Of a stretch of DNA of 64,000 bases, positions 41,993 to 62,987 are shown one piece after another. The stretch covers positions 5,111 to 69,110 of the forward strand of contig JAJCYP010000030.1 of NCBI GenBank assembly GCA_029262855.1, read 5' to 3'. Below the pieces are notes generated by a model. It was given only the letters and a program-made list of their open reading frames with translations, was not told where the DNA came from and searched no databases. Position 1 is the first letter of the stretch; every line of letters starts with the position of its first letter. Source of the stretch: Bacteroidota bacterium (GTDB lineage Bacteria; Bacteroidota; Rhodothermia; Rhodothermales; UBA10348). A program made the position numbers and the translations under genes.

Positions 41993-42035
41993 AAGAGAAA
42001 CGGGAGACCGCCACGCGACCGGTGACGATCTCCCG
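41993..42035 (-). terminator. rho-independent terminator after S8 peptidase 1
   Basis: On the minus strand: CGGGAGA...TCTCCCG stem with inner GC pairs, followed by TTTCTCTT. It lies 57 nt after the stop. Confidence 0.65.
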
Positions 42036-42091
42036 CTCGTCTCGAACGGCGTCCGCGTCGGCCGCAGCCTGACAGGGACACCCCGGAGATG

Positions 42092-44923: not shown

Positions 44924-44935
44924 GGGTAAAGGCTT

Positions 44936-47389
44936 CTAGTATTGTGCGAAGTAGCGGACCGCGGCGACGGCGTAGTCGGCGCGGGTCGCGTTCGCAGTGG
45001 GCTCAAAACGGGCGGTCACGGTGGGCTCGGCGTCGAATGCCCCCTGACTGAGGTCGAAGAAGACGTTGAGCAGGCCCAGGTCGATAGCGATTTGCACGTA
45101 GCCGGCCTTTGGGCCCAGCCCGTCTGCATCGGTGACGGGGACCCTGGTCCCGTTGTAATTGGCGGTTACCGAGCCTTCAAAACCGGCCGCGGCGGACGAC
45201 AGTCCGAGGCTCTGGACCAGCGAGTAGGCCAGGTCGGCCCGGCTGACCGATCCGCTCGGGTTGAAGGAGCCGCTCGTTTCGAGGACGCCGTCGGCGATCT
45301 GAGCACGGTCCCGCAAGGCGGATCCGCGGGTGGCGACGGCTTCGGCGAAGGGCGCCTTGTCAGCAGACACGTCACCGAAGGTGGTGGAACCGTCTCCCTG
45401 ACGGATGCCGGCCCCGAGAACCAGGTACTCGGCCAACTCGATACGTGTCAGCCGCTGGTCCGGAGCGTAGTTGCCTCCGGGAAGTCCGTCGATGAGTTGC
45501 TCGGCGACGGCCGATTGGATGGCCGCGGACGCCGGATGACCGTCGATGTCATTCAGGCCCGTGAAGCCGTTAACGGTCTCAAAGGAAATCTTGCCGTCCA
45601 CCTGCTCAGGCAGGGACACCGTGTTGTTTCCTGTCCCGTTCTGGATGCCACGAATCTCGAGTGTCCAGGTGCCGGGCATCGGGCTCGTGACGATCTGGGC
45701 ACGCGCATATTCCAGCGTGAAGAGGAGCGTGGTGCCACTCAGGTACTCGGTGCCATCGGGCGCGATCAGTACCGGATAGATGGGATTTCCGGTCTCCCCG
45801 GCAACGCCGCCCGCGGAGAAGCGGGCAGCCAGGGTCGTCAGTCCAGCCGGGACCTGGAAGGCCATCCGGTTTCCATCGGCCGACAGTTCCGGCCGAGGGT
45901 TGAAGTCGATCGAAAACGCGGTGTCGATGCGGTCCGAGTCGACAAAAGCGTTGAAGTCCCGGGTGCTCGTGCGGGTCGTCCCATAGTCCCGGAGGCCGAG
46001 GGCCATCTGAACGGCGGCGTACGCGTTGACGTATCCCGATCCGACCTCCCAGCTTTCGCGGCCGGGCATGTTTGTGGCCGACCGCTGCAGAATGTCCTTG
46101 ACCTCATCGGGGCTCAATGATGGATTCGCTTCCAGTATGAGGGCAACGATGCCGGCCGCATGTGGCGTGGCCATCGAGGTGCCGCTCATGTGGGTGTAGA
46201 AGGCAGCATTCGCACCCAGTACATCCACATCCGCCTCGGCTGCCAGCAGTGGCAGGGAGCCGGTGGTGGCCCGGGTCGAGATGATGTCGACTCCTGGGGC
46301 GACGATGGTAGGCTCGTTGAAGTAGGTCCAGGAGCGGTTGTCTGGGGTCGTGAAATTGCCGGAGTCCCCTTCCACTCCGCGTGATGAGAAGTCAACCAGC
46401 GTGGCTGCCTTCGTGCCGGCACCCACCGAGATCACCCAGGGAGCCACGGCATACGGGTTGTGGGTATCCTCATCCGGGCCAGAGTTGCCCGCAGCAAACA
46501 GCACGGTGATACCGCGCTTGTAGGCGGCATAGGACGCGACGTTGATCGGGTGGTCAGGATTGAAGGTGCCGCCTGAGCCCCATGAATTGGTAATGACCCG
46601 GATGCCATAGCGGAACTGATTGGTGATGGTCCAATCGAAGCCGCCTATCGTGTCCAGGATGAGCAGGACTGCGCCGGATCCGTAGCCGATCATGTCAGCG
46701 CCCGGCGCGACACCGGCGTGCTGACCACCCGACTGCTGACCGGTCCCGCCGACCGTTCCGGCGACGTGCGTACCGTGTCCCGAGCCGAGGTCGGTGTTTT
46801 CCTGATCTTCGAGATATACGATGGGCGCCAGATCATCGACGCCGTGAGGATTGGTCGCTCCCTGCACATTCTGCACGACATGCCTCAGATCGGGATGTGA
46901 CGCATCGATTCCTGAGTCGTGAACCACGACGCCTACGTTCTTGCCGCTGAACGGAAGACCCATGGCGTTCCGCATGCCGGAGTCCGAGACGAGCTTGTTG
47001 ACCCCGGTCAGGTCTCGAGCGTCCTTGTTGAAGTAGGTCTGCTGCTCGTTGGCCCAGATCGAGCGAACCCCGCTCATCCCGGCGACTTGGAGGATCTGGT
47101 CTGGCGTGGCAACGATGCCCGCGATGGGGAGGCTCTCAAAAAAGACGCCCTGGCTGATGCCCAGATCGGTCAGCGCCTGGACCTGTGAGGCGTCAATCGC
47201 GCCTTCTCCATGGAAGGTCACGACGACAGTCATTGGTTCGGTGGGCTCCGCAGACGCCAGCGTGGCATCCAGCCCGGGTCCGAAGACAGCACTTTGTGCC
47301 CGGCTGACACCGGAACCTGCCAACAGCAGGAGGGCCACCATGGCAACCGGGCGCAACCACGGCGAGAACAAGTTGGTAGAAAATAACAT
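44936..47389 (-). CDS. secreted S8 serine peptidase with SLH-like repeats, no T9SS tail (paralog 2)
   Basis: Signal peptide. VVHDSGIDASHPDL, GSGHGTHVAG and SGTSMATPHAAG. It ends after the third SLH-like module (..AVRYFAQY). Only 12 nt separate it from paralog 1. Confidence 0.9.
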   Translation of the reverse strand: MLFSTNLFSPWLRPVAMVALLLLAGSGVSRAQSAVFGPGLDATLASAEPTEPMTVVVTFHGEGAIDASQVQALTDLGISQGVFFESLPIAGIVATPDQILQVAGMSGVRSIWANEQQTYFNKDARDLTGVNKLVSDSGMRNAMGLPFSGKNVGVVVHDSGIDASHPDLRHVVQNVQGATNPHGVDDLAPIVYLEDQENTDLGSGHGTHVAGTVGGTGQQSGGQHAGVAPGADMIGYGSGAVLLILDTIGGFDWTITNQFRYGIRVITNSWGSGGTFNPDHPINVASYAAYKRGITVLFAAGNSGPDEDTHNPYAVAPWVISVGAGTKAATLVDFSSRGVEGDSGNFTTPDNRSWTYFNEPTIVAPGVDIISTRATTGSLPLLAAEADVDVLGANAAFYTHMSGTSMATPHAAGIVALILEANPSLSPDEVKDILQRSATNMPGRESWEVGSGYVNAYAAVQMALGLRDYGTTRTSTRDFNAFVDSDRIDTAFSIDFNPRPELSADGNRMAFQVPAGLTTLAARFSAGGVAGETGNPIYPVLIAPDGTEYLSGTTLLFTLEYARAQIVTSPMPGTWTLEIRGIQNGTGNNTVSLPEQVDGKISFETVNGFTGLNDIDGHPASAAIQSAVAEQLIDGLPGGNYAPDQRLTRIELAEYLVLGAGIRQGDGSTTFGDVSADKAPFAEAVATRGSALRDRAQIADGVLETSGSFNPSGSVSRADLAYSLVQSLGLSSAAAGFEGSVTANYNGTRVPVTDADGLGPKAGYVQIAIDLGLLNVFFDLSQGAFDAEPTVTARFEPTANATRADYAVAAVRYFAQY

Positions 47390-47615
47390 GACGAAGGAGT
47401 ATTTGCGGTCCGCTCGTCACCGAGAAGCCCCCTTGCTTCTCCGGGATTTGCGGGTGCGGTTTGGAGACAGTGCAAGTATCCCCCACCACATATCCTTCGG
47501 TATATCGGTCGATCGTCCTTCCTTTCGTCGGAATTCGGGATTCGCCGTGGTAGGAACTTGCCGCCGGGGCTGTCGGACTTCCGGCAGCGCTTCGTAGGAA
47601 CCGTTCGTCCCGGCC

Positions 47616-47633
47616 TGCAGGAAATGTCCTACA
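47616..47633. promoter_or_regulatory. 18-bp palindrome TGCAGGA-AATG-TCCTACA (operator candidate; alternatively a hairpin after S8 paralog 3)
   Basis: An inverted repeat with 16/18 identity to the site at 50555-50572. Exact GTAGGAAC 8-mers lie nearby at 47550-47557 and 47594-47601. Confidence 0.4.
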
Positions 47634-47659
47634 GGGTGCCAAGCCCAGGTCCCTGGGGC

Positions 47660-50422
47660 CTACTTGACCAGGAGCATTGAGCGGGTCAGAACCCCTCGCG
47701 GCGTCGTCAGACGATACAGGTATCGTCCCGTGGCCAGTCCGCGTCCGTCGAAACGCACTCGGTGGATTCCGGAAGGCAAAACGCCGTCGTGCAGGACCCC
47801 GACACGCCGACCGGTCAGGTCGAAAACTTCCAGAAGTGCATGAGTCTCCGATGCCAGGGTGAAAGCGATCGTCGTGACCGGATTGAAGGGGTTCGGGTAG
47901 TTCTGCGTCAACTCGGGTCCGCCATCGACGGGCGTGTCCTGGACCGTCTCGACCGAGCGGCGCGGGCTCCGGGTTTCGAATCCGCCCTTGGCGGTGAAGC
48001 CCAGGTCCGGAAGCGGAGCGGACAGGAAAGAGTCCGAGAAGCGAGAAACGTATACCGCGTACTCGCTCCTTGTGACTCTGTCGTCAGGCTCATACAGCGG
48101 GCCCTGAGGCGAGTCCGCTGCTTCCATAATGCCGAGGTCAAGCGCCAGCTGAACATAGCCGCGAAGCTCGGGCGCAATGGCCGACCAGTCGGCCAGTTCC
48201 AGATTGCCGTCGTAGACAGGGCGCTCTCCGTGAGACCGGGCCGCCTCCTGGAGGGCCAGGCTCTGCACAAATGAGTAGGCCAGCCTTTCCCGCGTGACCT
48301 TACGCTTGGGTTGGAAAGCACCCTCCCGAAGTCGCATCACCCCGTCCAGAAGCCCGTCGGTGTCCATCAGAGCGGCCCCGGTTGATAGCACAGCAGCGGC
48401 AAAGGGCGCTTCGGACTCCTTCAGGTCCTCGGGTCCACCCTCGTCCAGCGCCTTGCGTATCCCCGCTCCCATAACGAGGTATTCGGCAATCTCAATGCGC
48501 CTGAGACGATCCTCCGGGCGAAAGCGTCGGGCACGATCTCCATCCACCAGGCGACGCGAAACGGCGTAGGCAATGACAGATTCATCGGGATGGCCGGAAA
48601 TGTCACCAAGGCCCTCGAGGTCAGTGGCCAGGAGGGCAACGTGGCCTCGAACCTGTCCGGGAACGCCAATCCCGTTCGTGAGGCCGAAGGCGTCCAGGCG
48701 AAGGCCTGCCCAGGCTCCAACTCCTCGCACCTCCAGCGTCCATTCTCCGGGGACTGCCGGGGCTGTGACGGTGACACCCGCCTGATATGCCGGGATCGAA
48801 ACGCCTGACTCGTATTGCTGGCCAACCGGATTCGTCAGGACGAGAGCGGCCGTGTTTTCCCCGATCGTGGCGGCGGCCGAGACGAGGTCGGTATCCTCAG
48901 CGACCGGAAATACCAGGCGCTGCGATGTACCGGCGGGCGAGAAGGCGAGATCAAACGGAATTGCGGGCTGCGACGGAGCCAGCGTGACGTTGGCGTTGAA
49001 GGACCGCCGGAGATTCACCGTTTCGGCGAGTCCGGCCTGTCCGTCGCGATGCAGGACGGTTTGGACAACCGCCGCGTGAGCGTTGACGTACCCTGCCCCG
49101 GCTTCCCATGCTGCGCCGCCGCTCATGTTCGTCGCCGTGCTCTCAAGGATGTCCTTGACGCGCCGCCAGTCCAACGTTGGATCGGCCTCAAGCATCATCG
49201 CGATGATGCCGGCAACATGCGGGCATGCCATCGAGGTGCCCGTGGCCACGGCATAGTAGGGCACGAACTCAGGGTGGAGCGACCAGTGCATCGATCCGGT
49301 CGAGGCGTTGGCGGAGATCACCGCCGTACCCGGGGCCGTGATTGTCGGACGATCGACCCAGGTGTACACGGTCCCGTCCCGGCCGGTGAACGTGCCGCTC
49401 TCACCAATCCGTCCTCGCGAAGAAAAACTCCCCAATCGCCCCTGATTGTCCCCTGCGGCAACGGTCACCACCCAGGGAGCCTTCTTGTAGTTGCCCGTGA
49501 TCGTGCCGGAAACGGGTCCAGAGTTGCCGGCCGAAAAGACGACGATGATCCCTCGATCGGCCAGCTTCTTCGTCGCGACGTTTGTCGGATGATCAGGCTG
49601 GAAATCAGTACCGGAGTCATCGGATTCCCCAAACGAGTTGGAAACCACCCGAATATTGTATTCGAACTGATGGGTGAGGGCATAATCGAATCCGCCCAGC
49701 GCATCCAGAACGAGTACCACGGCACCGGAACCGTAGCCGATGATGTCGGCTCCCGGGGCTACACCCTCGAATTTTCCGCCTGACGCCGCGCCCGTGCCCC
49801 CCAGAATGCCTGCGACGTGAGTGCCGTGCCCGCCGCCGTGATCTGTGTTCGGGATGCCACCAACGTAGGTTACCGGGAGAAGGGAGCTCACCGCAGCGAG
49901 GTTGGTCTGACCCGCTACGTTTTCCACCACGTTGTCTTTAAGGTCGGGATGTGTCGCGTCAATTCCGGAGTCGTTGACCAGAACGCCGATACCCCGGCCC
50001 GAGTACGGAAGGCCAGCTGCAGTCCTCAAGCCTGCATCGGCGCGCAGTCGGTCCACACCGGTCGCCGCGGTCGGCCCGCGGTTTTCGAGTACCAGACGAT
50101 CGTTCAGCCAAATCGAGCGGACGGAAGAGAGCGCAGCGATCGCTTCAATCTGGCCGGGCGTGGCCAGAAGGCCCGCGATGGGCAAACTGCGAAACCAGAA
50201 CCCGGTGACTCCGATCGCCTGCAATTCGGCTATCTGCCCACTGGAGATGGGTCCTTCGGCTTCGAAGGTGACCACCACCTCGAGCTGCTCCAGGGGCGCC
50301 GCGGATGCCAGCGCCTCTTGAAGGGTAGGTCCGAGCGTCTGAGCCGACGCCGGCGAGGCAATCGGCAGAAGGACCACTGTCAGTGCAGCGAGGACGGAAA
50401 ACCGGCGGGCGGATAGGCTCAC
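47660..50422 (-). CDS. secreted S8 serine peptidase with SLH-like repeats and T9SS C-terminal sorting domain (paralog 3)
   Basis: LVNDSGIDATHPDL, GGHGTHVAG and TGTSMACPHVAG. C-terminal NYPNPFNPVTTIAF...VFDLTGRRV...GRYLYRL...LLVK. A GTG at 50422 gives the signal peptide (M)SLSARRFSVLAALTVVLLPIASPASA. The ORF-track extension to 51136 is rejected. Confidence 0.85.
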   Translation of the reverse strand: MSLSARRFSVLAALTVVLLPIASPASAQTLGPTLQEALASAAPLEQLEVVVTFEAEGPISSGQIAELQAIGVTGFWFRSLPIAGLLATPGQIEAIAALSSVRSIWLNDRLVLENRGPTAATGVDRLRADAGLRTAAGLPYSGRGIGVLVNDSGIDATHPDLKDNVVENVAGQTNLAAVSSLLPVTYVGGIPNTDHGGGHGTHVAGILGGTGAASGGKFEGVAPGADIIGYGSGAVVLVLDALGGFDYALTHQFEYNIRVVSNSFGESDDSGTDFQPDHPTNVATKKLADRGIIVVFSAGNSGPVSGTITGNYKKAPWVVTVAAGDNQGRLGSFSSRGRIGESGTFTGRDGTVYTWVDRPTITAPGTAVISANASTGSMHWSLHPEFVPYYAVATGTSMACPHVAGIIAMMLEADPTLDWRRVKDILESTATNMSGGAAWEAGAGYVNAHAAVVQTVLHRDGQAGLAETVNLRRSFNANVTLAPSQPAIPFDLAFSPAGTSQRLVFPVAEDTDLVSAAATIGENTAALVLTNPVGQQYESGVSIPAYQAGVTVTAPAVPGEWTLEVRGVGAWAGLRLDAFGLTNGIGVPGQVRGHVALLATDLEGLGDISGHPDESVIAYAVSRRLVDGDRARRFRPEDRLRRIEIAEYLVMGAGIRKALDEGGPEDLKESEAPFAAAVLSTGAALMDTDGLLDGVMRLREGAFQPKRKVTRERLAYSFVQSLALQEAARSHGERPVYDGNLELADWSAIAPELRGYVQLALDLGIMEAADSPQGPLYEPDDRVTRSEYAVYVSRFSDSFLSAPLPDLGFTAKGGFETRSPRRSVETVQDTPVDGGPELTQNYPNPFNPVTTIAFTLASETHALLEVFDLTGRRVGVLHDGVLPSGIHRVRFDGRGLATGRYLYRLTTPRGVLTRSMLLVK

Positions 50423-50554
50423 TGTGCGCAGGGTGGCTGGGTCCTGGAATACAGCAGAGAAAATGGAAATCAATCGCCCGTTCTGCAGTCGGCACAGGAC
50501 GCAATGGAGCGTAAGAAGGTGGACCTCGAGGCCGTAGGCGGGACGGTATTCGTT

Positions 50555-50572
50555 TGTAGGAAAAGTCCTACA
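50555..50572. promoter_or_regulatory. 18-bp perfect palindrome TGTAGGA-AAAG-TCCTACA (operator candidate)
   Basis: Perfect 7-bp inverted repeat with a 4-nt spacer, in the divergent region between S8 paralog 3 and the Asp-box propeller gene. 16/18 identical to 47616-47633. Confidence 0.45.
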
Positions 50573-50579
50573 GCGATCC

Positions 50580-50597
50580 TGTGACATATTTGTGACC
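50580..50597. promoter_or_regulatory. direct repeat TGTGACA-TATT-TGTGACC (11-bp period), same half-site as 36953-36970 on the opposite strand
   Basis: Its reverse complement, GGTCACA-AATA-TGTCACA, matches TGTCACA-GAAC-TGTCACA at 36953. It sits 7 nt from the palindrome. CATATTTG (50585-50592) resembles a -7 element. Confidence 0.4.
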
Positions 50598-50674
50598 ATT
50601 GCACCTGTACATTCCTGAATGCGGCACCGGTCGGTGGCCGCGCTACCCCCTTGGCACAAACCCCATTTAAGACA

Positions 50675-53600
50675 ATGAGGACCCACACACTCCTCCGTGC
50701 GGCAGGCCTGGCCCTGTGCAGCGTACTGGTTTTGATCCCGACTGCTGACGCGCAAAAGCTGGATCTCGACAAGCTGAAGGCCATGCAGGCGCGGGCGATT
50801 GGCCCGGCCGGTATGAGTGGCCGCGTCACGGCCATCGATGTAGTCCTGAGAGACCCCGCGGTGATCTACGCCGGCACCGCCTCGGGCGGACTGTGGCGAT
50901 CCACGAATGCAGGGATCAGCTGGGAGCCCGTCTTCGACGACCAGCCGGTGCACTCCATTGGAGCCGTGGCCGTAAACCAGAGCAATCCGGACGTGATCTG
51001 GGTCGCAACAGGAGAGGGCAACCCTCGCAACAGCGCCAACGCTGGAAACGGCATCTACAAGTCGATCGATGGCGGGCGAAGCTGGCGGCACCTTGGCCTC
51101 GAGAACAGCCGGACGATTCACAGGCTCATCCTGCATCCCACCAATCCGGACGTGGCCTACGCGGGTGTTCAGGGCCCCCCGTGGGGCGAGGGAGAGGAAC
51201 GCGGCGTCTACAAGACTACCGACGGTGGCGAGACCTGGGTCCGGATTCTGTATGCCAACGTGAAGACCGGAATTGCTGATCTGGTCATGGATCCCGTGAA
51301 TCCCGACAAGCTCATCGCCGCAATGTGGGAATTCCGCCGGTGGCCCTACTTCATGAAGTCGGGTGGCGAAGGATCCGGGATCTGGGTCACGTATGATGGT
51401 GGAGAAAACTGGACCCAGCGCACCAGCGAAGACGGGCTGCCAGAGGGCGAACTCGGTCGGATCGGCCTGTCGATCGCGCCGAGCGATCCATCGATCGTCT
51501 ATGCCATTGTCGAAGCGAAGGAAAATGTGTGGCTACGGTCCACCGACGGTGGCTTTTCGTTCGAAGAGGTCAACAAGGGACAGCCGGTCACCAATCGCCC
51601 GTTCTACTACAACGACATCTTCGTCGACCCAGTAAACGAGAATCGGGTCTACTGGCTCTCGTCCAGTGTCCGAGTCACCAATGACGGGGGACGGACCTTC
51701 GAGCCCATCCCGCCACAGGGTACCCCGGGTGGCGGTATCCATCCGGACCACCACGCATTCTGGGTTCATCCGGATGATGCGGATTACCTCATCGAAGGGA
51801 ACGACGGTGGCCTCAACATCTCCCGTGATCGTGGCAAGACCTGGCGCTTCGCGGAAAACCTCCCGCTGGCCCAGTTCTACCACATCAACGTGGACAACAG
51901 CATTCCCTACAACGTGATGGGAGGGCTGCAGGACAACGGCTCCTGGATCGGCCCTGCCTACCTCTGGAGAGCCGGTGGAATCCGGAATTCGGACTGGAAG
52001 GAGGTAGGATTTGGAGACGGTTTCGATGTCACGGTGATGCCGGACAACGAACGATTCATGTACTCGATGAGTCAGGGCGGCAGTCTGCGTCGATTTGACT
52101 CGGAGACCGGGACCGGCGTCAGCATCCGACCGATCCATCCGGATGGTGAGTTCCTCCGGTTTAATTGGAATGCGGCCTTTGCCCAAAGTCCCCAGAATGC
52201 TGCTACGATCTACTATGGCAGCCAGTACCTACACAAGTCCACCGATCGTGGTAACAACTGGACGATCATCTCGCCGGATCTGACAACGAACGATCCGGAG
52301 AAGCAAAAACAGATCGACTCGGGAGGACTCAACTATGATGTCACCGGTGCCGAGAACTACACCACCATCGTCTCGATTGCCCCGAGTCCACTCGACGGGA
52401 ACGTGATCTGGGCCGGGTCGGATGACGGGAACGTCCAGGTGACGCGTGATGGGGGAGCAACTTGGACCAATACGGTCGGCGGAATGCGCGGGCTCGCCAA
52501 GGGCGGTTGGGTCACCCAGATCAAGGCGTCCACCTACAATGCCGGCGAGGCGTTCGTGGTGATTGAGGATCATCGCCGCAACAACTGGGAGACGTACCTC
52601 TACCACACCCGCGATTACGGTTCCACGTGGTCCCGGATGGCGGAGGACGCCTGGGGCTATGCCCTCTCGTTCGTACAGGACCCTGTTCAACCCCGTCTCA
52701 TGTTCCTCGGAACGGAGTTCGGCGTATGGGTCTCCGTGGACGCTGGAGCGAACTGGACCCAGTGGACGAATGGCATGCCGACCATGTCCGCCATGGATAT
52801 GGTCATACATCCCCGCGAACATGACCTCGTGGTCGGGACGTTTGGTAGAGCGATTTACGTTCTCGATGACATTCGGCCACTGAGGGCGATCGCCACGGAA
52901 GGTGCGGAGATCCTGGATGCTCGCCTGAAGGCAATCGCGGCCCCGGATGCTTATCTCGCCCAATGGGGACAGGCAGCGGGGACCCGGTTCTCGGCCAGTG
53001 CCATGTTTGAAGGGGAGAACCGTGATCGCGGAGGCATGATCTCCTACATCGTCAATCGTCCCGAGCGGTCGGGTGACGGTGAGCGGGCAGGAGGCGAGGC
53101 AGATGCCGAACGGCCGGCGGCCATGCGGGCGCGCCGAGCGGCGGCAGGAGGCCCAGGACGGGCTGGACGCGCAGGCGGCGCTCGGAATCGGGTCAAGATC
53201 GAGATTGTAAACGGCGATGGCGAGGTGATCCGGACGGCGAACGGACCCGCCGAGCCCGGACTGAATCGCTACTTCTGGCGGCTTCGCCAGAAGGGGTTCA
53301 GTCAGCCCGGAGGCGGGTTCCGTGGCGGCGGTCGATTCGGTGGTGGCGGTGGCGCCGACCAGGAACCGGCCGGACCCGACGTGCTGCCGGGCACCTACAA
53401 GGTGAGGCTGACGATGGGTCAGGCGAGCGACTCGACCAGCATCACCGTGCATCCGGACCCGAGGCAGGACTACAACCGCGCCGGCGCTGAGGCCCGGGTC
53501 GCGCTGTACCAGAGCATGGAGGGACTGTTCACCGCCGCAACTGACGCCCTCAAGCAGCTGACCGATGCCGGCGAGGCCCACGACTGGATTGGCGATAAGC

Positions 53601-53959
53601 TGTCGGCGATGGACGAGGAGGACCGCGGAGATCTGATGGAAGAGCACCGTGCGGTCAAGGACTCCCTGGACGCCGTGAGGGCCGTGATCTTTGGCGAGCA
53701 GGGAGCACAGGGCATCAGGCGTGATCCGACTACCGTCTCTTCCAGGATGCGAACCGCACTCGGATACATCAGCCGGAGCACGGACATGCCCGGAGCCACC
53801 GAGGATGCGGCCATGGCCCAGAGTCGCGCCGCGATCTCCGAGCTCGTCGAGTTGGTGAACGGTTTCATTGGCGGCCGATGGGCAGAGTATGTCCAGACCA
53901 TCGAGGGCGCCAATCTTTCGTTGTTCACCCCCATGGAGCCCGTTCGCTTGAACAACTGA
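50675..53959 (+). CDS. Asp-box (BNR) repeat, VPS10/sortilin-like beta-propeller protein (paralog A)
   Basis: Signal peptide MRTHTLLRAAGLALCSVLVLIPTADA at ATG 50675. About 11 Asp-box-like motifs (SIDGGRSW, TTDGGETW, TYDGGENW, SRDRGKTW, TRDGGATW...). Confidence 0.8.
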   Translation: MRTHTLLRAAGLALCSVLVLIPTADAQKLDLDKLKAMQARAIGPAGMSGRVTAIDVVLRDPAVIYAGTASGGLWRSTNAGISWEPVFDDQPVHSIGAVAVNQSNPDVIWVATGEGNPRNSANAGNGIYKSIDGGRSWRHLGLENSRTIHRLILHPTNPDVAYAGVQGPPWGEGEERGVYKTTDGGETWVRILYANVKTGIADLVMDPVNPDKLIAAMWEFRRWPYFMKSGGEGSGIWVTYDGGENWTQRTSEDGLPEGELGRIGLSIAPSDPSIVYAIVEAKENVWLRSTDGGFSFEEVNKGQPVTNRPFYYNDIFVDPVNENRVYWLSSSVRVTNDGGRTFEPIPPQGTPGGGIHPDHHAFWVHPDDADYLIEGNDGGLNISRDRGKTWRFAENLPLAQFYHINVDNSIPYNVMGGLQDNGSWIGPAYLWRAGGIRNSDWKEVGFGDGFDVTVMPDNERFMYSMSQGGSLRRFDSETGTGVSIRPIHPDGEFLRFNWNAAFAQSPQNAATIYYGSQYLHKSTDRGNNWTIISPDLTTNDPEKQKQIDSGGLNYDVTGAENYTTIVSIAPSPLDGNVIWAGSDDGNVQVTRDGGATWTNTVGGMRGLAKGGWVTQIKASTYNAGEAFVVIEDHRRNNWETYLYHTRDYGSTWSRMAEDAWGYALSFVQDPVQPRLMFLGTEFGVWVSVDAGANWTQWTNGMPTMSAMDMVIHPREHDLVVGTFGRAIYVLDDIRPLRAIATEGAEILDARLKAIAAPDAYLAQWGQAAGTRFSASAMFEGENRDRGGMISYIVNRPERSGDGERAGGEADAERPAAMRARRAAAGGPGRAGRAGGARNRVKIEIVNGDGEVIRTANGPAEPGLNRYFWRLRQKGFSQPGGGFRGGGRFGGGGGADQEPAGPDVLPGTYKVRLTMGQASDSTSITVHPDPRQDYNRAGAEARVALYQSMEGLFTAATDALKQLTDAGEAHDWIGDKLSAMDEEDRGDLMEEHRAVKDSLDAVRAVIFGEQGAQGIRRDPTTVSSRMRTALGYISRSTDMPGATEDAAMAQSRAAISELVELVNGFIGGRWAEYVQTIEGANLSLFTPMEPVRLNN

Positions 53960-53994
53960 TGCTATTCTTCCGGACCGAAACCCGCCGCCCTGCC

Positions 53995-54062
53995 ATGCGC
54001 CTTCTATTCCTCGCCGTCACACTTGTCGTTGTCGCACCCGTCATCGCCCAGGAGAAGCCTCC
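53995..54062 (+). other. orphaned signal-peptide-encoding segment, out of frame with the downstream amidohydrolase ORF
   Basis: ATG 53995 encodes MRLLFLAVTLVVVAPVIAQEKP. That frame terminates at TGA 54130-54132, while the amidohydrolase frame is open but start-less over the same stretch. Confidence 0.6.
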
Positions 54063-54128
54063 TGGGATGTCTCGGCCCCGTTCGGCCCCACGTCGGAGGT
54101 CTCCTTCACAACGGACGAGGGCACATGG

Positions 54129-57100
54129 ATGAGCCTGGACGTTTCGCCAGACGGGCGCACGATTGTCTTCGACATGATGGGAGACCTCTACACGATACCC
54201 ATCGCTGGTGGAACAGCCACCTCCATCACCACGGGCCCGGCCTGGGACGTGCAGCCCACATTCAGCCCGGACGGCTCCCGCATCGCCTTCACGAGCGATC
54301 GGGCCGGCGGCGACAATATCTGGACGATTGCCGCCGATGGATCCGACGCCCGTCAGGTGACGAAGGAAAAATTCCGGTTGCTCAACGGCCCTGCCTGGAC
54401 GCCGGACGGCGCGTACCTCCTGGCTCGCAAGCACTTCACGTCCTCGCGCTCTCTCGGGGCCGGTGAGGTCTGGATGTATCACGCGTCGGGCGAAGCCTCA
54501 GGCGGGATTCAACTCACCAAGCAGAAGAACAACCAGCAGGATCAGGGCAATGAGATTACACTCAGTCCTGACGGCCGATATGTCTACTTTTCCGAGGATA
54601 TGTCGGGTGGGTCCACGTTCCAGTACAACAAGGATCCCAACGGCATGATCTACGCCATCCGGCGGCTGGATCGGGAGACGGGGCGACTGGAGAACTACAT
54701 CACCGGCGCCGGAGGTTCGGCGCGCGCTACCCCATCGCCCGACGGAAAGACCATCGCCTTTGTGCGCAGGGTGAGGGAGAAGTCCGTCATCTTCCTCTTC
54801 GATACAACCACGGGACGGCAGTGGCCCGTTTTCGACGGGCTGAACCGGGACCAGCAGGAAGCCTGGGCCATCTTCGGCGTCTATCCGAGGATGGACTGGA
54901 CGCCCGATGGATCCAGCCTTGTGTTCTGGGCGGGCGGCAAGATCAATCGCCTGGACGTGGCATCCCGTGCGGTGGCGGACATTCCCTTCGAGGTGCAGAT
55001 CGATCGGACCATCCACGAGGCGCTGCGCGTGCCCGTCACTGTCCATGAGCCCAGCTTCGAGTCCAGGATGATTCGGGATGTGGCCACCGCGCCCGATGGC
55101 AGCATGATGGTGTTCCATTCGGCGGGCTTCCTCTACACCAAGGCGCTGCCGAACGGCGTGCCGAGGCGGCTGACGTCCCAGACCGAGCATTGGGAATACG
55201 ACCCCTCCTTCAGCCCGGACGGAAGAACCCTGGTGTACACCACCTGGAATGACCGGGACTATGCGGCGATCCGACGGATTTCGGTCACCGGAGGCGTCAG
55301 TCAGGTCCTGTCAACGCGTCCAGGGCACTACTATGAGCCCCGATTCTCTCCCGATGGGGCCCAGATTGTCTACCGGCGGGGCGGAGGCAGTTCGCTGACC
55401 GGTCGCCTGCATGGCATGGAGACCGGGATTTATCGCATGCCCGTCGCAGGAGGGCCCGCCACACGTGTGAGCCGATCAGGGTCTGATGCCCGCTTTGGTC
55501 CCCGCGGGAAGCGGGTCTACTTCCTGAGCGGCGGAGGGCTTTCGAAGGAATACCGGTCCGTGGATGTGAACGGGGCCGACGAGCGCACCCACCTGAACCT
55601 CAAATACGCCAACACGGCCGTTCCCAGCCCCGACTTCAAGTGGGTGGCATTCAACGAACTGTTCAATGCCTACGTCGTCCCGTTTCCAATGACCGGGGGA
55701 GCGATCGATCTCAACAAGGACTCGAAAGCGGTGCCCGTCAAGCAGGTTACGCGCGACCTGGGGACGGATCTGCATTGGTCGGCGGACTCGAAAACGCTTC
55801 ACTGGATGGTGGGGCCTGAGTACTACTCGCGCTCGCTGGCGGAGTCGTTTGCCTTTGTTGATGGTGCGCCTGAAGAGCTGCCCGCGATTGACAGCACCGG
55901 CGTGAGCGTCGGGTTGACGCTTCAGTCGGATGCTCCTTCGGGAACGACTGCCATCACCAACGCCCGACTGGTCACCATGAATGGCGATGAGGTCATCGCC
56001 CGCGGAACGATCCTGGTGAGCGGCAATCGAATTGCCGCGATTGGCGTCGATGTGGAAATCCCGGCAGGGGCAACGGTTATCGATGCGGCTGGGAAGACGG
56101 TCATGCCGGGGTTTGTGGATGCCCATGCGCATCTCAATCACTTCTTTACCGGCCCCATCCCGCAGGAATCCTGGGTGTACTCGGCCAATCTGGGCTTCGG
56201 CGTGACAACCACCCACGACCCGTCGGCAAACACGGAGACGGTCTTCACGCTTTCGGAGATGGTGAAGGCCGGCCGGATCATGGGTCCGCGGATCTACTCG
56301 ACCGGTACGATCCTCTACGGGGCCGACGGCGACTTCAAGGCCGAGGTCAACTCGCTGGACGATGCCCGGAGTCACCTCCGCCGGATGAAGGCAGTCGGCG
56401 CGATCAGCGTCAAGAGCTACAACCAGCCGCGACGCGAGCAGCGCCAGCAGATCATGCAGGCCGCGCGGGAGCAGGGCCTGAACGTGGTGCCCGAGGGCGG
56501 CTCGACCTTCAACCACAACATGACCATGATCATCGATGGTCACACGGGGATCGAGCATAGCGTGCCTGTCGCACCGCTGTACCGGGACGTGCTGGAGACC
56601 TGGCGGCACTCGAAGACCGGCTATACACCCACCCTGGTGGTGGTCTATGGCGGGCCCAGCGGTGAACGCTTCTTCTACGAGCGGGACAACGTGTGGGAGA
56701 ACGAGCGACTCCTTCGCTACGTGCCACGGGACAACGTGGATCCGCAGTCCCGGCGCAGGTGGAAGTCAGCCGACGACGAGTACTACCACGACGACGTGGC
56801 CGCGGAGGCCAAGAAACTGGTCGACCAGGGCAACACGGTCCAGATCGGTGCCCACGGACAGATGCAGGGCCTGGCGTTCCATTGGGAGATGCGCATGCTC
56901 ACCCAGGGTGGATTCACGCCGCACGAGGCGCTCCGATCTGCGACGCTCCACGGAGCCCGCTACCTCGGCATGGACGCGGACATCGGCTCGCTCGAGGTGG
57001 GCAAGCTGGCCGACTTGATCGTTGTCGATGGAGACCCGCTGGCCCGAATCGAGGACGCCGAGAACGTGACCCACGTGATGGTGAACGGGCGGATCTGGAA

Positions 57101-57143
57101 CGCGATGGAACTGCCGCGAGGGGCGACGGCTGACAGTTGGTAG
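54129..57143 (+). CDS. TolB-like beta-propeller / amidohydrolase fusion protein (coordinates from the first in-frame start; the true 5' end is probably 53995 via a frame correction)
   Basis: N-terminal PD40/TolB-type repeats (SPDGRTIVF, FSPDGSRIAFTSDR, SPDGKTIAFV, FSPDGRTLVY, FSPDGAQIVY). C-terminal amidohydrolase motifs (PGFVDAHAHL, GHTGIEH). Confidence 0.85.
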   Translation: MSLDVSPDGRTIVFDMMGDLYTIPIAGGTATSITTGPAWDVQPTFSPDGSRIAFTSDRAGGDNIWTIAADGSDARQVTKEKFRLLNGPAWTPDGAYLLARKHFTSSRSLGAGEVWMYHASGEASGGIQLTKQKNNQQDQGNEITLSPDGRYVYFSEDMSGGSTFQYNKDPNGMIYAIRRLDRETGRLENYITGAGGSARATPSPDGKTIAFVRRVREKSVIFLFDTTTGRQWPVFDGLNRDQQEAWAIFGVYPRMDWTPDGSSLVFWAGGKINRLDVASRAVADIPFEVQIDRTIHEALRVPVTVHEPSFESRMIRDVATAPDGSMMVFHSAGFLYTKALPNGVPRRLTSQTEHWEYDPSFSPDGRTLVYTTWNDRDYAAIRRISVTGGVSQVLSTRPGHYYEPRFSPDGAQIVYRRGGGSSLTGRLHGMETGIYRMPVAGGPATRVSRSGSDARFGPRGKRVYFLSGGGLSKEYRSVDVNGADERTHLNLKYANTAVPSPDFKWVAFNELFNAYVVPFPMTGGAIDLNKDSKAVPVKQVTRDLGTDLHWSADSKTLHWMVGPEYYSRSLAESFAFVDGAPEELPAIDSTGVSVGLTLQSDAPSGTTAITNARLVTMNGDEVIARGTILVSGNRIAAIGVDVEIPAGATVIDAAGKTVMPGFVDAHAHLNHFFTGPIPQESWVYSANLGFGVTTTHDPSANTETVFTLSEMVKAGRIMGPRIYSTGTILYGADGDFKAEVNSLDDARSHLRRMKAVGAISVKSYNQPRREQRQQIMQAAREQGLNVVPEGGSTFNHNMTMIIDGHTGIEHSVPVAPLYRDVLETWRHSKTGYTPTLVVVYGGPSGERFFYERDNVWENERLLRYVPRDNVDPQSRRRWKSADDEYYHDDVAAEAKKLVDQGNTVQIGAHGQMQGLAFHWEMRMLTQGGFTPHEALRSATLHGARYLGMDADIGSLEVGKLADLIVVDGDPLARIEDAENVTHVMVNGRIWNAMELPRGATADSW

Positions 57144-58840
57144 TGGTGGAGTCCTGGGTTTTTGGTGTGGTCGGATCTGAATCGCTTGTTGCGAGGGGTC
57201 GCGCTCTGGCTGAACGTTGCCCTGGAAGCCGCAGCCGTACATCCAGGACCGCCCTTCTTGTTGCCTCTCCTGCGGGCCCGACGTCTCTGTTTTCGGTTCG
57301 GGCTCATGGCGCGACGGCTCTCAGCGGATCAGTTTTCGTGAGTCGGTCCAACGGTGGGCAGTTCTTGCTGGACGAGCATCATCTCGCCGGACAGTGGGAG
57401 CACCGGCTGTCCTCTCTCAAGCTCGGGCAGTTTGCTGCTGCTTGCCTGAATGACTCGACAATCGAGTTGTACACCGACCCGAACGGCCTGAGGAGTTTCT
57501 TCGTTCATGAGTCCGACGCGGGAGCGATTTTCTCGACCCACCTCCACCTCATCACCTCTCTGACCGGGGTCCTCGACTTGGACCTCAGTCAGTTTGGCTC
57601 TCATTGGTTCAGTCACAACCAGATGAACAAGGGCAGCCTTGTAAGGGGTGTTGGCCGGATATGTGCGGGCGATGCCATGGAGCTCCGGGCGAGTCCTTGC
57701 GGCGCCTCAGTCATTCGCCGACCTCGTCCCGTTGGTCGGGATTGTCCGGACTCACCCTTGGCCTGGGTTGGCGAGCTATTGAACAATATCGACCTCCCTA
57801 TAGCCCTTTCTCTATCTGGAGGCCTCGATTCGCGCGTCCTACTCGGTCTGGCTCAGTCGGCAGGTATTCGGCCAAGGCCGTTTGTGTTCGGAGATGAGCG
57901 CAGCCCTGATGTCCAGATTGCACAAATGGCGGCCGCTGCCTGTGGCCTGGAGTGCCTTCATGTCCCTTCGCGCTCGCTGGACGACTGTGTCTTGGGAGGA
58001 GATCTCGAGCGGTATGCCCGCGACAACTGGTGCGCCACCCCTCTCTCGGCAGCCGGGCACCTTACTTCCTACGACAGGGTATTCGAATCCAGTCCTGGCG
58101 CCATTCTGATCGATGGCGGGTTCGGTGAAATCGGCCGTGGGCAGTTCTATCGGAGGGTTGAGGTCTTGAGGAAGCTGCGAAGGCTTCACCGAGGCCCGTT
58201 GGGGGCCGTCATGAGCGCTGTATCATTCAAGCGTGTCAACGTTTTCCGAACTGAGGCACTCGCGATGATGACGCGTGGCGTCGAATCGGCAGCGTCGGAG
58301 TTTCGTGACCAGCTTGTTGCGGCTCGTAGTTCGAGACCGGAGGACACAGTCGCTGCCAGGATTCGACGACAGAATTTCTTCGGACTGACCCAGGGCTGGA
58401 TGGACTCTCAGGGACCGTCGCTGATGCCCTTCGCGCAGGAGGCATTCGTCCGCTCGGTCCTCAAGATTCCCAGCCGCGAGCGAGTAGGAGGCCGCCTCTT
58501 CCGGAGACTTCTCAAGGCGGAGGCACGACAGCTGACGAGGCTACCACTCGCCAAGGGTCGCCACGCCCTTCCGTTTAGACTTCCATCACCCTTGTATCCG
58601 TTGCACTTTCGACTCGCCGCAGGCGCACCCGGTGCGCCCTCCGCGTTCGGTGGCGCCGCGACCCGGCAATTGCTGTACGACTCTCTGAATTCCCTGCACT
58701 CGCGGGAGTGGGTCGCCCTGGACCACGCGAGGGCGGAGCAGTTGCTGGACTCCTTCTATGCTGGCCAAAGACACTTGGAAAGCGAGGTGTCGTGGTTGGG
58801 AGCCGTGCTCTTGTGGCGGATGTCCAACTCCATCAACTGA
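57137..58840 (+). CDS. asparagine synthetase B-like protein (PP-loop ATP pyrophosphatase) lacking the N-terminal Cys nucleophile
   Basis: PP-loop LSLSGGLDSRVLLG and an AsnB-like N-domain remnant YTDPNGLRSFF. There is no Cys after any candidate start (TTG 57137; GTG 57143, 57146, 57167). It overlaps the amidohydrolase stop by 7 nt. Confidence 0.7.
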   Translation: MVVVESWVFGVVGSESLVARGRALAERCPGSRSRTSRTALLVASPAGPTSLFSVRAHGATALSGSVFVSRSNGGQFLLDEHHLAGQWEHRLSSLKLGQFAAACLNDSTIELYTDPNGLRSFFVHESDAGAIFSTHLHLITSLTGVLDLDLSQFGSHWFSHNQMNKGSLVRGVGRICAGDAMELRASPCGASVIRRPRPVGRDCPDSPLAWVGELLNNIDLPIALSLSGGLDSRVLLGLAQSAGIRPRPFVFGDERSPDVQIAQMAAAACGLECLHVPSRSLDDCVLGGDLERYARDNWCATPLSAAGHLTSYDRVFESSPGAILIDGGFGEIGRGQFYRRVEVLRKLRRLHRGPLGAVMSAVSFKRVNVFRTEALAMMTRGVESAASEFRDQLVAARSSRPEDTVAARIRRQNFFGLTQGWMDSQGPSLMPFAQEAFVRSVLKIPSRERVGGRLFRRLLKAEARQLTRLPLAKGRHALPFRLPSPLYPLHFRLAAGAPGAPSAFGGAATRQLLYDSLNSLHSREWVALDHARAEQLLDSFYAGQRHLESEVSWLGAVLLWRMSNSIN

Positions 58841-58861: not shown

Positions 58862-59770
58862 ATGGACTACCAGGGAATACTCAGGGAGATCGCCCACGAA
58901 ATCCAGCCGCTTCTGGGGCAGGGAGCGGTCGCGGACTATATCCCGCCGCTGGCCACGGAAGACCCCAACCGGTTTGGTATGGCGGTGCGTCTGCTCGACG
59001 GTTCCGAGTTCGTCGCAGGAGAGGCCGACCACCCGTTCTCTATCCAGAGCGTCTCCAAAGTGTTTCGGCTGGCGCTGGCCATGGATATCCACGGAGACGG
59101 CATCTGGCGCCGCGTAGGTCGTGAGGCTTCGGGCACCGCCTTCAATTCACTGGTTCAATTGGAGACGGAACGGGGAATTCCGAGAAATCCGATGATCAGC
59201 GCGGGTGCGCTGGTGACGATGGATGCGATCTTGCAGCCCGGCGGTCAACGTGATCCCGGCATCGCCTTCATCCAGCGATGCCTTGATGGTCAGCCGGTAG
59301 CCTACGACGACGGAGTTGCCGACGCCGAGTTGGCCACCACACACCGGAATCGTGCGCTAGCTCATCTACTGAAGTCATTCGGCAATCTTAATAACGACCC
59401 CGAGGACGTCATCGCCGCCCATACCCGCGAGTCCGCTGTGACGCTGAGTTGTCGGGACCTGTGTCGTGCCGGGGCCTTTCTCGTTACGGGTGGCCTCACG
59501 CCCGCGGGAAGCCGTGTGACCGAGGCCCGTCAGGCAAAGCGAATCAACGCAATCATGCTGACTTCCGGCGTCTACGACGAGGCCGGCGACTATGCCTACC
59601 GGGTAGGGCTACCCGCCAAGAGTGGGGTAGGCGGGGGTGTACTCGCCGTCATGCCTGGTCAGTTTACGGTTTGCGTCTGGTCTCCGGGGCTGAACCCAAA
59701 GGGAAACTCGCTGGCAGGTACTATGGCGCTGGAGCTTTTCACGACGATGACCGGGGTTTCCGTGTTTTAG
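58862..59770 (+). CDS. glsA: glutaminase A
   Basis: VADYIPPLA, FSIQSVSKVF, NPMISAGA and GLPAKSGVGGG. Confidence 0.92.
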   Translation: MDYQGILREIAHEIQPLLGQGAVADYIPPLATEDPNRFGMAVRLLDGSEFVAGEADHPFSIQSVSKVFRLALAMDIHGDGIWRRVGREASGTAFNSLVQLETERGIPRNPMISAGALVTMDAILQPGGQRDPGIAFIQRCLDGQPVAYDDGVADAELATTHRNRALAHLLKSFGNLNNDPEDVIAAHTRESAVTLSCRDLCRAGAFLVTGGLTPAGSRVTEARQAKRINAIMLTSGVYDEAGDYAYRVGLPAKSGVGGGVLAVMPGQFTVCVWSPGLNPKGNSLAGTMALELFTTMTGVSVF

Positions 59771-59927: not shown

Positions 59928-62900
59928 ATGAGACGCTTTCTCCTGACCGGTGCGACCACCCTGCTGGTCGCATTTCTCGCCGTTGATGCCTCGGCCCAGA
60001 TCGACCCCATTCTTTACGAGGGCCTCGAATATCGCGAAGTAGGCCCATTCCGGGGCGGCCGTGCCTCCGCCGTTACCGGCGCGCCCGGCCATCCTGACCT
60101 GTACTACATGGGAGCAACCGGTGGTGGCGTCTGGCGAACCACCGACTCGGGCAACAGCTGGGAGAACATTTCTGACGGCTTCTTTGGAAGCTCGATCGGA
60201 GCCATCGCAGTCAGCGACTGGGATCCGAACGTCATATACGTAGGCGGCGGAGAGGAGACAGTTCGCGGAAATGTGTCCTACGGCACCGGCATGTGGAAGT
60301 CTGTTGATGCCGGAAAGACCTGGTCAAGCATGGGTCTTGTGGACTCCGAGCGCATCACGCACATCGAAATCCACCCCCGGAATCCTGATCTCGTTTACGC
60401 AGCTGTGCTCGGCCACCTGCACGGGCCTCACGAAACTCGCGGTGTCTATCGTTCCAGGGACGGCGGCGAAAACTGGAAGCGCGTCCTGTTCGTCAACGAC
60501 ATGTCCGGCGCAGTCGACCTCAGGATGGATCCCTCCAATCCGAGGGTTCTGTATGCGGCAACCTGGCGAGTAACGCGGACTCCCTACAGTCTGGAGTCGG
60601 GCGGAGAAGGATCACACCTATGGAAATCCACCGACGGCGGCAACAACTGGACCCAGTTGACCGACACCGACACCGGGCTGCCCGGAGGGACGATCGGGAA
60701 GATTGGAGTCGCCGTGTCGCACGCCAACCCAGAGCGGGTCTGGGCCATCATTGAGCACGAAGACGGTGGTGTATTCCGGTCCGAGGACGGCGGCGAGAGC
60801 TGGCGGCAGATCAACAGCGATCGCAGTTTGCGGCAGCGCGCCTGGTACTACACCCACATCTACGCGGACACGCAGGACGAGAACGTGGTGTACGTGATGA
60901 ACGTGGGCTTCCACAAGTCCACGGACGGCGGCGCCACCTATGAGCGGATCCGCACGCCACACGGCGACCATCACGACATGTGGATCAATCCGGATCATCC
61001 GAACCGTTTCATTGTGGCCGATGACGGCGGAGCCCAGGTCACGGTCAACGGCGGCGATACGTTTTCGACCTACATGAACCAGCCGACCGCGCAGTTCTAC
61101 AGGGTGACGACGGACAACAATTTCCCCTATCGCATTCTAGGAGCACAGCAGGACAACTCGACCGTCCGAATCCTGCACACCTCCAGTGGCAGCGAGGATG
61201 ACTGGGAGCCCAGCGCAGGGGGTGAGAGTGGCTGGCTGGCTCCGCACCCGGACAATCCCGACATCGTTTACGGAGGATCATACGGGGGGACGTTTACCCG
61301 CGTGGACCACCAGACGGGCGCCCGTCGCAACGTGAATGTCTGGCCCGACAATCCGATGGGTCACGGCGCCGAGGATTACCGCTTTCGCTTCCAGTGGAAC
61401 TTCCCCATCGTGTTTTCCCGCCACGATTCGGGTACGCTGTACGCGGCGTCACAGCATCTGCACGCGTCGACGGACGAAGGACAGTCCTGGAAGACCATCA
61501 GCCCTGACCTCACGGTTGGCGATCCTTCGACGCTGGGGGCATCGGGTGGTCCCATCACCAAGGATAACACGGCCGTGGAGTACTACGCGACCATCTTTGC
61601 CATCGCGCAGGGCGAGGAAGAAGGCGTGATCTGGGTCGGGTCTGACGACGGACTGATGCACGTCACGCGGGACGGAGGCGAGAACTGGACGGAGATCACC
61701 CCGCCCTCACGCATGTGGCCGGAGTGGATGATGGTCAATGACATCGTCGTGGATCCCTTCAATCCCGGCGGAGCGTATGTCGCAGGAACGCGCTACAAGT
61801 TGGATGACTTCGCGCCCTACCTCTACAAGACCGAGGACTACGGGGCCACCTGGAAGAAGATCGTGACGGGCATCGACGGGAGTCACTTCACGCGGGCCAT
61901 TCAGCCCGACCCAGAGCGCGCAGGACTGGTGTATGCGGGTACCGAGTTCGGGATGTACATCTCGTTCAACGACGGGGCTTCCTGGAGCACCTTCCAGAAT
62001 AATCTCCCGATCGTTCCGATCACGGACCTCGCCTGGCGCGATCACGATCTCATCGTCGCCACGCAGGGACGCTCGTTCTGGATCATGGAGGATCTGATGC
62101 CGCTACACAAGGCGTCTGCGTCCATGGCGGAGTCCAAGTTTGCGCTGATCGGTCCCTACCCAACCCATCGCATGATCGACGGAGGCAACGGGGTGACGCT
62201 GCGGTATTTCCTGAACAATCCCGATGACGACGCCGAGGTCAAGATTCGGGTGCTGGACGGAATGGGAGACATCATCGACTCCTGGTCGTCGAAGGACGAC
62301 GGGAACAGCGCCGTATCGAAGGAACACGGTCTGAATTCGCACTCGTGGAACATGCGCTATCCGCGTGCCGAGGAATTCCCGGGCATGATACTCTGGTCTG
62401 GCGGCGGCATGAACGGCCCCATGGCGGTACCCGGCACGTACTCCGCCAGGCTGATCGTGGGCGAGGACTCGACGGACACTGACTTCACGATTCTTCCGGA
62501 TCCACGAAGCACGGCGACCGATGCCGATCGTCAGGCACAGTTCGACTTCCTCCTCTCGGTCCGCGACAAGCTGACCGAAACCCATCAGGCCATCAAGCGA
62601 ATTCGCGGAGCCCGGGAGCAGATCAATGGCGTTCTGGATCGGGTTCCGAAGGACCATGCGGAACTGGATGCCCTGAAGGAGGCAGCCGAGTCGCTCCTCG
62701 ATCCGATGAAGGCCATCGAGGAGACGCTGTACCAGACCAAGAATCGCAGCGGCCAGGATCCGTTGAACTTCCCCATTCGCCTCAACAACAAGCTGGCATC
62801 GGTAGGAGGTACCGCCGCGGGGGGGGACTACCGCCCCACCGACCAGTCGGTGGCCGTCCGCGACGAATTGGTGACGGCGATTGATGCGGAGCTGGCCAAG

Positions 62901-62987
62901 CTGGGCGTGCTCTTCGGATCGGGACTTGAGCAATTCAATGCGGCTGTTCGTGCGGCGAATATTCCGGCGGTAGTTCTGGACAAGTAG
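59928..62987 (+). CDS. Asp-box (BNR) repeat, VPS10/sortilin-like beta-propeller protein (paralog B)
   Basis: Signal peptide MRRFLLTGATTLLVAFLAVDASA. Asp-box-like motifs TTDSGNSW, SVDAGKTW, SRDGGENW, STDGGNNW, SEDGGESW, STDGGATY, TRDGGENW, TEDYGATW. Confidence 0.8.
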   Translation: MRRFLLTGATTLLVAFLAVDASAQIDPILYEGLEYREVGPFRGGRASAVTGAPGHPDLYYMGATGGGVWRTTDSGNSWENISDGFFGSSIGAIAVSDWDPNVIYVGGGEETVRGNVSYGTGMWKSVDAGKTWSSMGLVDSERITHIEIHPRNPDLVYAAVLGHLHGPHETRGVYRSRDGGENWKRVLFVNDMSGAVDLRMDPSNPRVLYAATWRVTRTPYSLESGGEGSHLWKSTDGGNNWTQLTDTDTGLPGGTIGKIGVAVSHANPERVWAIIEHEDGGVFRSEDGGESWRQINSDRSLRQRAWYYTHIYADTQDENVVYVMNVGFHKSTDGGATYERIRTPHGDHHDMWINPDHPNRFIVADDGGAQVTVNGGDTFSTYMNQPTAQFYRVTTDNNFPYRILGAQQDNSTVRILHTSSGSEDDWEPSAGGESGWLAPHPDNPDIVYGGSYGGTFTRVDHQTGARRNVNVWPDNPMGHGAEDYRFRFQWNFPIVFSRHDSGTLYAASQHLHASTDEGQSWKTISPDLTVGDPSTLGASGGPITKDNTAVEYYATIFAIAQGEEEGVIWVGSDDGLMHVTRDGGENWTEITPPSRMWPEWMMVNDIVVDPFNPGGAYVAGTRYKLDDFAPYLYKTEDYGATWKKIVTGIDGSHFTRAIQPDPERAGLVYAGTEFGMYISFNDGASWSTFQNNLPIVPITDLAWRDHDLIVATQGRSFWIMEDLMPLHKASASMAESKFALIGPYPTHRMIDGGNGVTLRYFLNNPDDDAEVKIRVLDGMGDIIDSWSSKDDGNSAVSKEHGLNSHSWNMRYPRAEEFPGMILWSGGGMNGPMAVPGTYSARLIVGEDSTDTDFTILPDPRSTATDADRQAQFDFLLSVRDKLTETHQAIKRIRGAREQINGVLDRVPKDHAELDALKEAAESLLDPMKAIEETLYQTKNRSGQDPLNFPIRLNNKLASVGGTAAGGDYRPTDQSVAVRDELVTAIDAELAKLGVLFGSGLEQFNAAVRAANIPAVVLDK

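Follow-up and report, generated by a model that had tools for sequence, protein, structure and literature searches.

The 64,000-nucleotide window analyzed here (contig JAJCYP010000030.1 of the Bacteroidota bacterium assembly GCA_029262855.1, positions 5,111 to 69,110 of the forward strand) contains a gene for a propeller-amidohydrolase enzyme whose signal peptide and enzyme body lie in different reading frames. The question raised by this locus is whether the split reflects a sequencing or assembly error, a mutation, or recoding. Comparison with an otherwise identical contig from a sister sequencing run shows that one A is missing from the window. We consider that this deletion is probably a genuine and very recent loss-of-function allele, dominant in the sample of run SRR15505518, with the intact allele present in the sister sample SRR15505515.

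Signal peptide and enzyme body in two reading frames

We translated the window from 53700 to 54420 in all three forward frames. The open reading frames (ORFs) and short elements relevant to the split are listed below, with lengths in nucleotides (nt) or amino acids (aa).

53995 to 54132, forward strand: 45-codon ORF made by the frameshift, comprising an intact signal peptide and an out-of-frame arginine-rich tail (QEKPPGMSRPRSAPRRRSPSQRTRAHG), ending at TGA 54130-54132
53995 to 54048, forward strand: signal peptide coding region, Met1 to Ala18 (MRLLFLAVTLVVVAPVIA), with a predicted signal peptidase I (SPase I) site between VIA and QE
54058 to 54060, forward strand: deletion site, where the intact allele has CCA TCC (Pro22 Ser23) and the window has CC-TCC, the A being missing between 54059 and 54060
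54060 to 54128, forward strand: stranded mature N-terminal segment SWDVSAPFGPTSEVSFTTDEGTW, 23 codons in the body frame with no canonical start upstream
54117 to 54121, forward strand: GAGGG, a Shine-Dalgarno-like string by sequence only, 7 nt upstream of ATG 54129 and derived from conserved D-E-G codons
54129 to 54132, forward strand: ATGA overlap between the leader-ORF stop TGA 54130-54132 and ATG 54129-54131, a conserved internal Met
54129 to 57143, forward strand: 1004-aa ORF as called publicly (P0001), with two PD40/Tricorn-like beta-propellers and then a C-terminal amidohydrolase domain

The frame that opens at ATG 53995 reads MRLLFLAVTLVVVAPVIAQEKPPGMSRPRSAPRRRSPSQRTRAHG up to its stop codon, the last 27 residues being the nonsense tail. 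The N-terminus has the layout of a Sec signal peptide with an SPase I site, namely M-R, then LLFLAVTLVVVAPV, then V-I-A before Q, and Kyte-Doolittle hydropathy in 11-residue windows peaks at 3.26 over residues 3-13. Since the leader contains no Cys, it is not that of a lipoprotein. Cleavage is predicted between VIA and QE, and the equivalent leaders of orthologs end in A-Q. The A-Q junction in most of the orthologs listed resembles a pattern described for Bacteroidota SPase I substrates, a Gln directly after the cleavage site. The leader ORF of the deletion allele still encodes the whole signal peptide and the predicted cleavage site.

The body frame is open from a stop codon at 53949-53951 and reads ...RPGEASWDVSAPFGPTSEVSFTTDEGTWMSLDVSPDG, with ...RPGEASWDVSAPFGPTSEVSFTTDEGTW ahead of ATG 54129. 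There are 59 open codons ahead of this ATG, none of which is ATG, GTG, or TTG. Relative to the frame of the signal peptide, that of the body is shifted by -1 (54129-53995 = 134 = 3x44+2), and homology to a single protein crosses from one to the other: the leader lies in the 53995 frame, SWDVS...GTW and the body lie in the -1 frame, and both halves align to orthologs encoded in a single frame. Translation and hydropathy therefore bear out what the initial annotation had claimed of both frames, i.e., a Sec signal peptide running from ATG 53995 into TGA 54130-54132 and a body frame lacking any start codon upstream of ATG 54129.

Origin of the single-base deletion

The site of the break is fixed by an intact allele. 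The only other member of the 90%-identity cluster of P0001 is P0121, a 1049-aa protein from the Logan assembly of run SRR15505515, and its sequence is identical to that of the repaired protein, i.e., the predicted 1049-aa precursor. Contig L089 of this run (Logan SRR15505515_18215) aligned by blastn to window 51780-57633 over 5855 nt with 0 mismatches and 1 gap; it reads CAG GAG AAG CCA TCC TGG GAT where the window reads AAG CC- TCC TGG. Contig L090, likewise from SRR15505515, matches window 37827-51792 at 100% identity, and together the two contigs give 19,807 nt of agreement with a single base different. The initial annotation had placed a one-nucleotide indel within CCTCCTGGG (54058-54066) and expected a repaired protein of ~1049 aa; both predictions proved exact. 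Because the rest of the ORF is undamaged and identical to the sister allele, the event appears to be very recent.

A contraction of CCC to CC was also considered, based on the 92%-identical relative L004, which has CCC TCC at this position. This was refuted by the 100%-identical sister contig, which shows that CCA has lost its A.

The deletion is present not only in the public assembly but also in the Logan assembly of run SRR15505518, where contigs L001 and L092 equal the window over 8233 and 11285 nt, respectively. These two contigs and L091 are identical to the window wherever they align (~18 kb in total), with no other indel. The context of the deletion, GAAGCC[A]TCCTGG, is free of repeats and homopolymers, the nearest runs being CCCC at 54076 and 54086. 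A k-mer has to occur more than once to enter a Logan contig, and reads that assemble into contigs of 4-14 kb must be accurate; in such reads, a recurrent deletion outside a repeat is very unlikely. We favor a real allele because two different assembly pipelines reproduce the deletion, the site is neither a homopolymer nor of another error-prone type, and the assemblies differ by no further indel; we infer that the cells themselves, and not just the reads, carry the deletion, which would be absent or minor in the sister sample.

The same observations bear on the main competing explanation, that the A was dropped by a sequencing or consensus error confined to the SRR15505518 data and that both samples carry an intact 1049-aa gene. 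We regard this as a minority possibility that nevertheless deserves serious weight. Single-base indels are the typical consensus error of metagenome-assembled genomes (MAGs), and this one is the sole difference in 19.8 kb between the assemblies of the two runs. Several further points count against a genuine null allele. The public assembly and the Logan contig were probably built on the same reads, so that their agreement tests the assembler and not the sequencing. The comparison was made at the level of assemblies only, and a read artefact specific to the run could underlie it. Literature searches for SRR15505518 and SRR155055 gave no hit, and no sample type or platform for SRR15505515 or SRR15505518, and the proposed loss of function is read from conservation and predicted structure. 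Apart from these points, neither allele had a match when JGI metagenome contigs were scanned.

The initial annotation had also raised recoding, while judging programmed frameshifting unlikely. The shift of -1 between leader and body is indeed in the direction that programmed ribosomal frameshifting usually takes. The 138-nt overlap (53995-54132), however, contains no X XXY YYZ heptamer in any phase; its homopolymers do not exceed 4 nt, and it has no long run of A or T. Neither the sister contig, identical in all other respects, nor any of the orthologs examined shows the frameshift. Programmed -1 frameshifting and transcriptional slippage were rejected on these grounds: an in-frame allele in the same strain, no slippery site, and a shift that is not conserved. 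A reversible phase-variation switch was likewise excluded, as the indel lies outside any repeat and no simple-sequence repeat occurs at the site. Considered together, these recoding mechanisms are the least credible of the explanations weighed here, to the point of being negligible.

Two other aspects of the sister-run comparison were recorded. Other possible frameshifts in the window were judged by direct comparison with contigs of the sister run, a GC3 frame-plot and an ORF survey being too unspecific at 62% GC. Separately, Logan contig SRR15505518_4022 (L001) matches the window exactly to 59361, after which its last 22 nt (L001 8234-8255) diverge inside the glutaminase gene. This suggests a branch of the assembly graph in SRR15505518, reflecting either a second variant or a tip artefact.

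Orthologs and consequences for the enzyme

We used the hypothetically repaired protein as the query of a database search, which returned thousands of relatives, and surveyed the best 120 hits. The top hit was P0001, the 1004-aa call from the genome of the window itself (NCBI and Logan). The next hits share 73-86% identity, are 1049-1057 aa long, and carry a leader followed by xWDVxxPFGPTxxVSFTTDEGTWMSLDVSPDG. Overall, 113 of the 120 proteins as called include a leader that runs directly into xWDVxxxxGPTxxVxFTTxEGTWM. Five of the others start at the internal Met, while P0047 (938 aa) and P0051 (which starts MWDV) are short at the N-terminus. In each of the five relatives for which we read the DNA of the leader region (L002, L004, L086, L087, and L088), the leader and body occupy one frame, as they do in the sister contig, and among the cases examined the frame is broken only in the window. 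The alignment that the initial annotation had proposed as a check thus finds the signal peptide and the WDV segment contiguous.

The initial annotation had further noted that relatives beginning at the Met of MSLDVSPDG would speak against a split gene. No relative examined truly starts there. Reading of the DNA showed that the leaderless call P0014 is cut by a contig edge, and that an in-frame ATG with a leader lies upstream of P0079 and P0115, which hence represent start-call errors. We accordingly rejected the leaderless form as a natural variant. For P0079 and P0115 (L086 1250-1500 and L087 1250-1500), the gene caller skipped an in-frame ATG and signal peptide ~45 codons upstream of the called start. 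The conserved W-M codon is a recurrent false start in the propeller-amidohydrolase family. The sole DNA-checked relative without a canonical start is P0007 (GCA_017643395.1), which has leader and body in one frame and ATC where the others have ATG.

The stranded 23 residues are highly conserved. In a 63-sequence alignment, W2, T22, and W23 are invariant and D3, V4, G9, F16, E20, and G21 are nearly invariant. Because the stranded residues match orthologs at these positions, the split is not a chance pattern, and the alignment together with the orthologs supports the earlier reading of WDVSAP...TTDEGTW as mature N-terminal sequence. We also generated an AlphaFold2 model of the 54060-57140 translation (1027 aa) from the 63-sequence alignment, with a mean predicted local distance difference test score (pLDDT) of 89 and a predicted template modelling score (pTM) of 0.89. 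Segment residues 11-18 form a beta-strand in this model (E11-18), within a block of pLDDT ~95. Since the lost part of the mature protein includes invariant positions and a strand modelled with high confidence, the product initiated at ATG 54129 would probably be defective, i.e., null or severely impaired.

The remainder of the model comprises ~600 all-beta residues (1-600) followed by an alpha/beta domain. The N-terminal part matches the propellers of TolB and tricorn protease by sequence search and Foldseek, and scores 123.4 bits against the Pfam family PD40 (cut-off 20.9); precomputed Tricorn_N and Tricorn_2nd families also match the 1004-aa ORF product. The C-terminal domain scores 90.6 bits against Amidohydro_1 (PF01979; gathering cut-off 25) and 68.5 bits against Amidohydro_3 (cut-off 29.7). 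It contains a metal-binding D-x-H-x-H motif (VDAHAH) in which D687, H689, and H691 are invariant in the 63 sequences, with HxH at the end of strand 1. This domain is predicted to be a metal-dependent amidohydrolase of the prolidase / Arg-Lys carboxypeptidase group.

These features suggest the following sequence of events. The ancestral gene would have encoded one 1049-aa secreted or periplasmic precursor, consisting of an 18-residue Sec signal peptide, two propellers, and the amidohydrolase domain. Loss of one A from codon 22 (CCA, Pro), four codons past the predicted cleavage site, would leave translation from ATG 53995 yielding a 45-residue product only, and would cut the enzyme body off from its start codon as well as from its export signal. 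The sole route to the body would then be initiation at ATG 54129, possibly aided by the ATGA overlap and the GAGG string, and the resulting protein would be cytoplasmic, would lack the first 23 mature residues, and would most likely be misfolded or inactive.

Could such a product instead be a functional, relocalized cytoplasmic enzyme, made adaptively by termination-reinitiation at the ATGA? Termination-reinitiation at 54129-54132 is possible judging by the arrangement of the two ORFs, the overlap and the GAGG 7 nt upstream could support it, and the 1004 downstream codons are undamaged. However, any very recent event would leave the ORF undamaged, and the GAGGG string is of uncertain relevance in the host phylum. 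The overlap and the GAGG string are both by-products of the conserved D-E-G-T-W-M codons and recur in relatives. The ATGA overlap itself is best read as incidental, because it exists out of frame in all relatives examined, the TGA over the W-M codons being present in L002, L004, and L088. Added to this, the lost residues are conserved and integral to a strand, the apparent starts at the internal Met in relatives are edge or start-call artefacts, and the neighboring genes encode exported proteases and peptide uptake. A functional relocalized enzyme is in our view very improbable. Of the three possibilities offered by the initial annotation, recoding has therefore fallen away and mutation in its relocalizing form is weakened, and the choice between error and mutation has narrowed in favor of a real allele.

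The value of this finding is mainly practical. The public 1004-aa protein P0001, which passes for complete, is a remnant of a 1049-aa secreted precursor, and any localization or function predicted from P0001 would be incorrect. A suspected frameshift can also, as this case illustrates, be settled from assemblies of sister samples when reads are not at hand. A real allele would in addition provide a small example of the loss of an exported enzyme within a population.

Genomic context, related lesions, and comparison with known systems

The genes flanking the propeller-amidohydrolase gene were as follows.

40245-41939, minus strand: OPT oligopeptide transporter
42092-44923, 44936-47389, and 47660-51136, minus strand: three S8 subtilases with SLH or Por-secretion-tail domains
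50675 to 53959, forward strand: upstream neighbor, a 1094-aa Sortilin/BNR-repeat protein with its own leader, ending 35 nt before ATG 53995
57143-58840, forward strand: downstream neighbor, a 565-aa protein with weak Asn_synthase similarity
58862-59770, forward strand: second downstream neighbor, a glutaminase

Genes for exported proteolysis and peptide uptake are abundant at 40245-53959 and 59928-62987 of the window and include two Sortilin/BNR-repeat proteins. Given such neighbors, a periplasmic or secreted location of the enzyme, as predicted from its leader, makes sense. In relatives L002 and L088 the glutaminase gene directly follows the amidohydrolase gene, with the 565-aa gene lying between them in the window. 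When the upstream 1094-aa gene was looked up in other samples, the SRR15505518 contig was the sole match.

Lesions of other kinds were observed in close relatives. The gene of P0007 (L002 2866-3000; JAEPNP010000001.1), like L003 (Logan SRR13449916), has a well-formed in-frame leader that reads RQLPGLLLLVLVSTANA up to the cleavage site and QEKEAWDV after it, with GCC ATC CGA in place of GCC ATG CGC. Two pipelines call leaderless proteins of 1015 and 1025 aa for this gene, because L002 offers no canonical in-frame start ahead of the internal Met other than GTG 2971. The ATC is either a rare initiator or the loss of a start codon. The closest diverged relative, L004 (2901-2925; JGI 3300035199, Ga0315335_023205; 92% identity), has TAG in place of the invariant Tyr855 (between HSQTG and TPTLVVVYGG), which splits the gene into 876- and 167-aa pieces. 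L048 (3001-5087; MAG JBLHLC010000011.1, Rhodothermales 3300054698_137; 83% identity) lacks residues ~198-554 (~357 codons), joining ...SGRY to IFNAYV... with a change of frame near 3588-3591, as a result of either a real internal deletion or a misassembly.

Together with the deletion in the window, 4 of the ~14 closest lineages thus carry some lesion in this gene. The pattern is weak: repeated loss of the gene could lie behind it, but so could noise in metagenomic assemblies. It is conceivable, if doubtful, that the window deletion is a standing polymorphism and that this exported enzyme has been hit independently several times in the Rhodothermales clade, amounting to recurrent and possibly adaptive loss. 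If true, this would describe how costly extracellular or periplasmic peptide processing is dropped, with cheater or loss variants rising in natural populations.

A literature search on the propeller-amidohydrolase fusion yielded irrelevant papers only. The parts of the enzyme were compared with solved structures. Residues ~630-1015 of the 1027-aa translation resemble Cc2672 (an L-Arg/Lys carboxypeptidase, PDB 3mtw), the prolidase-like 3feq/3n2c, 2qs8, 2p9b, and the ochratoxin amidohydrolases 8ihq and 9kov, with E-values of 5e-21 to 1e-11 and Foldseek target template modelling (TM) scores of 0.70-0.78. These solved enzymes are single-domain proteins of ~400 aa, whereas here the domain comes after ~620 residues of two beta-propellers. 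Tricorn protease (PDB 1k32) shares PD40 repeats and a Foldseek match over 722 columns, but the global superposition is weak (TM 0.23) and the tricorn protease catalytic domain is absent here.

The split itself can be compared with three known systems. As in the programmed -1 frameshifting of dnaX and IS3-family transposases, the ORFs overlap and the downstream frame is -1; in contrast to these genes, the locus lacks a slippery heptamer, relatives do not share the shift, and the same strain has an in-frame allele. Phase-variable contingency genes also show on and off alleles that differ by a single-base indel in closely related populations, but the indel here lies outside a repeat tract (CC-A-TCC) and so provides no mechanism for high-frequency, reversible switching. 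The closest likeness is to frameshift-disrupted genes, i.e., nascent pseudogenes or strain-level null alleles, in which homology extends over two frames, the indel is placed by an intact allele, and the gene caller, resorting to an internal Met, reports a truncated protein that looks complete, as P0001 does. The locus departs from the usual members of this class only in that the intact allele occurs in an otherwise identical contig of a sister run and that the break falls so soon after the cleavage site. It is an ordinary single-base frameshift in an ordinary exported propeller-amidohydrolase and involves no new mechanism.

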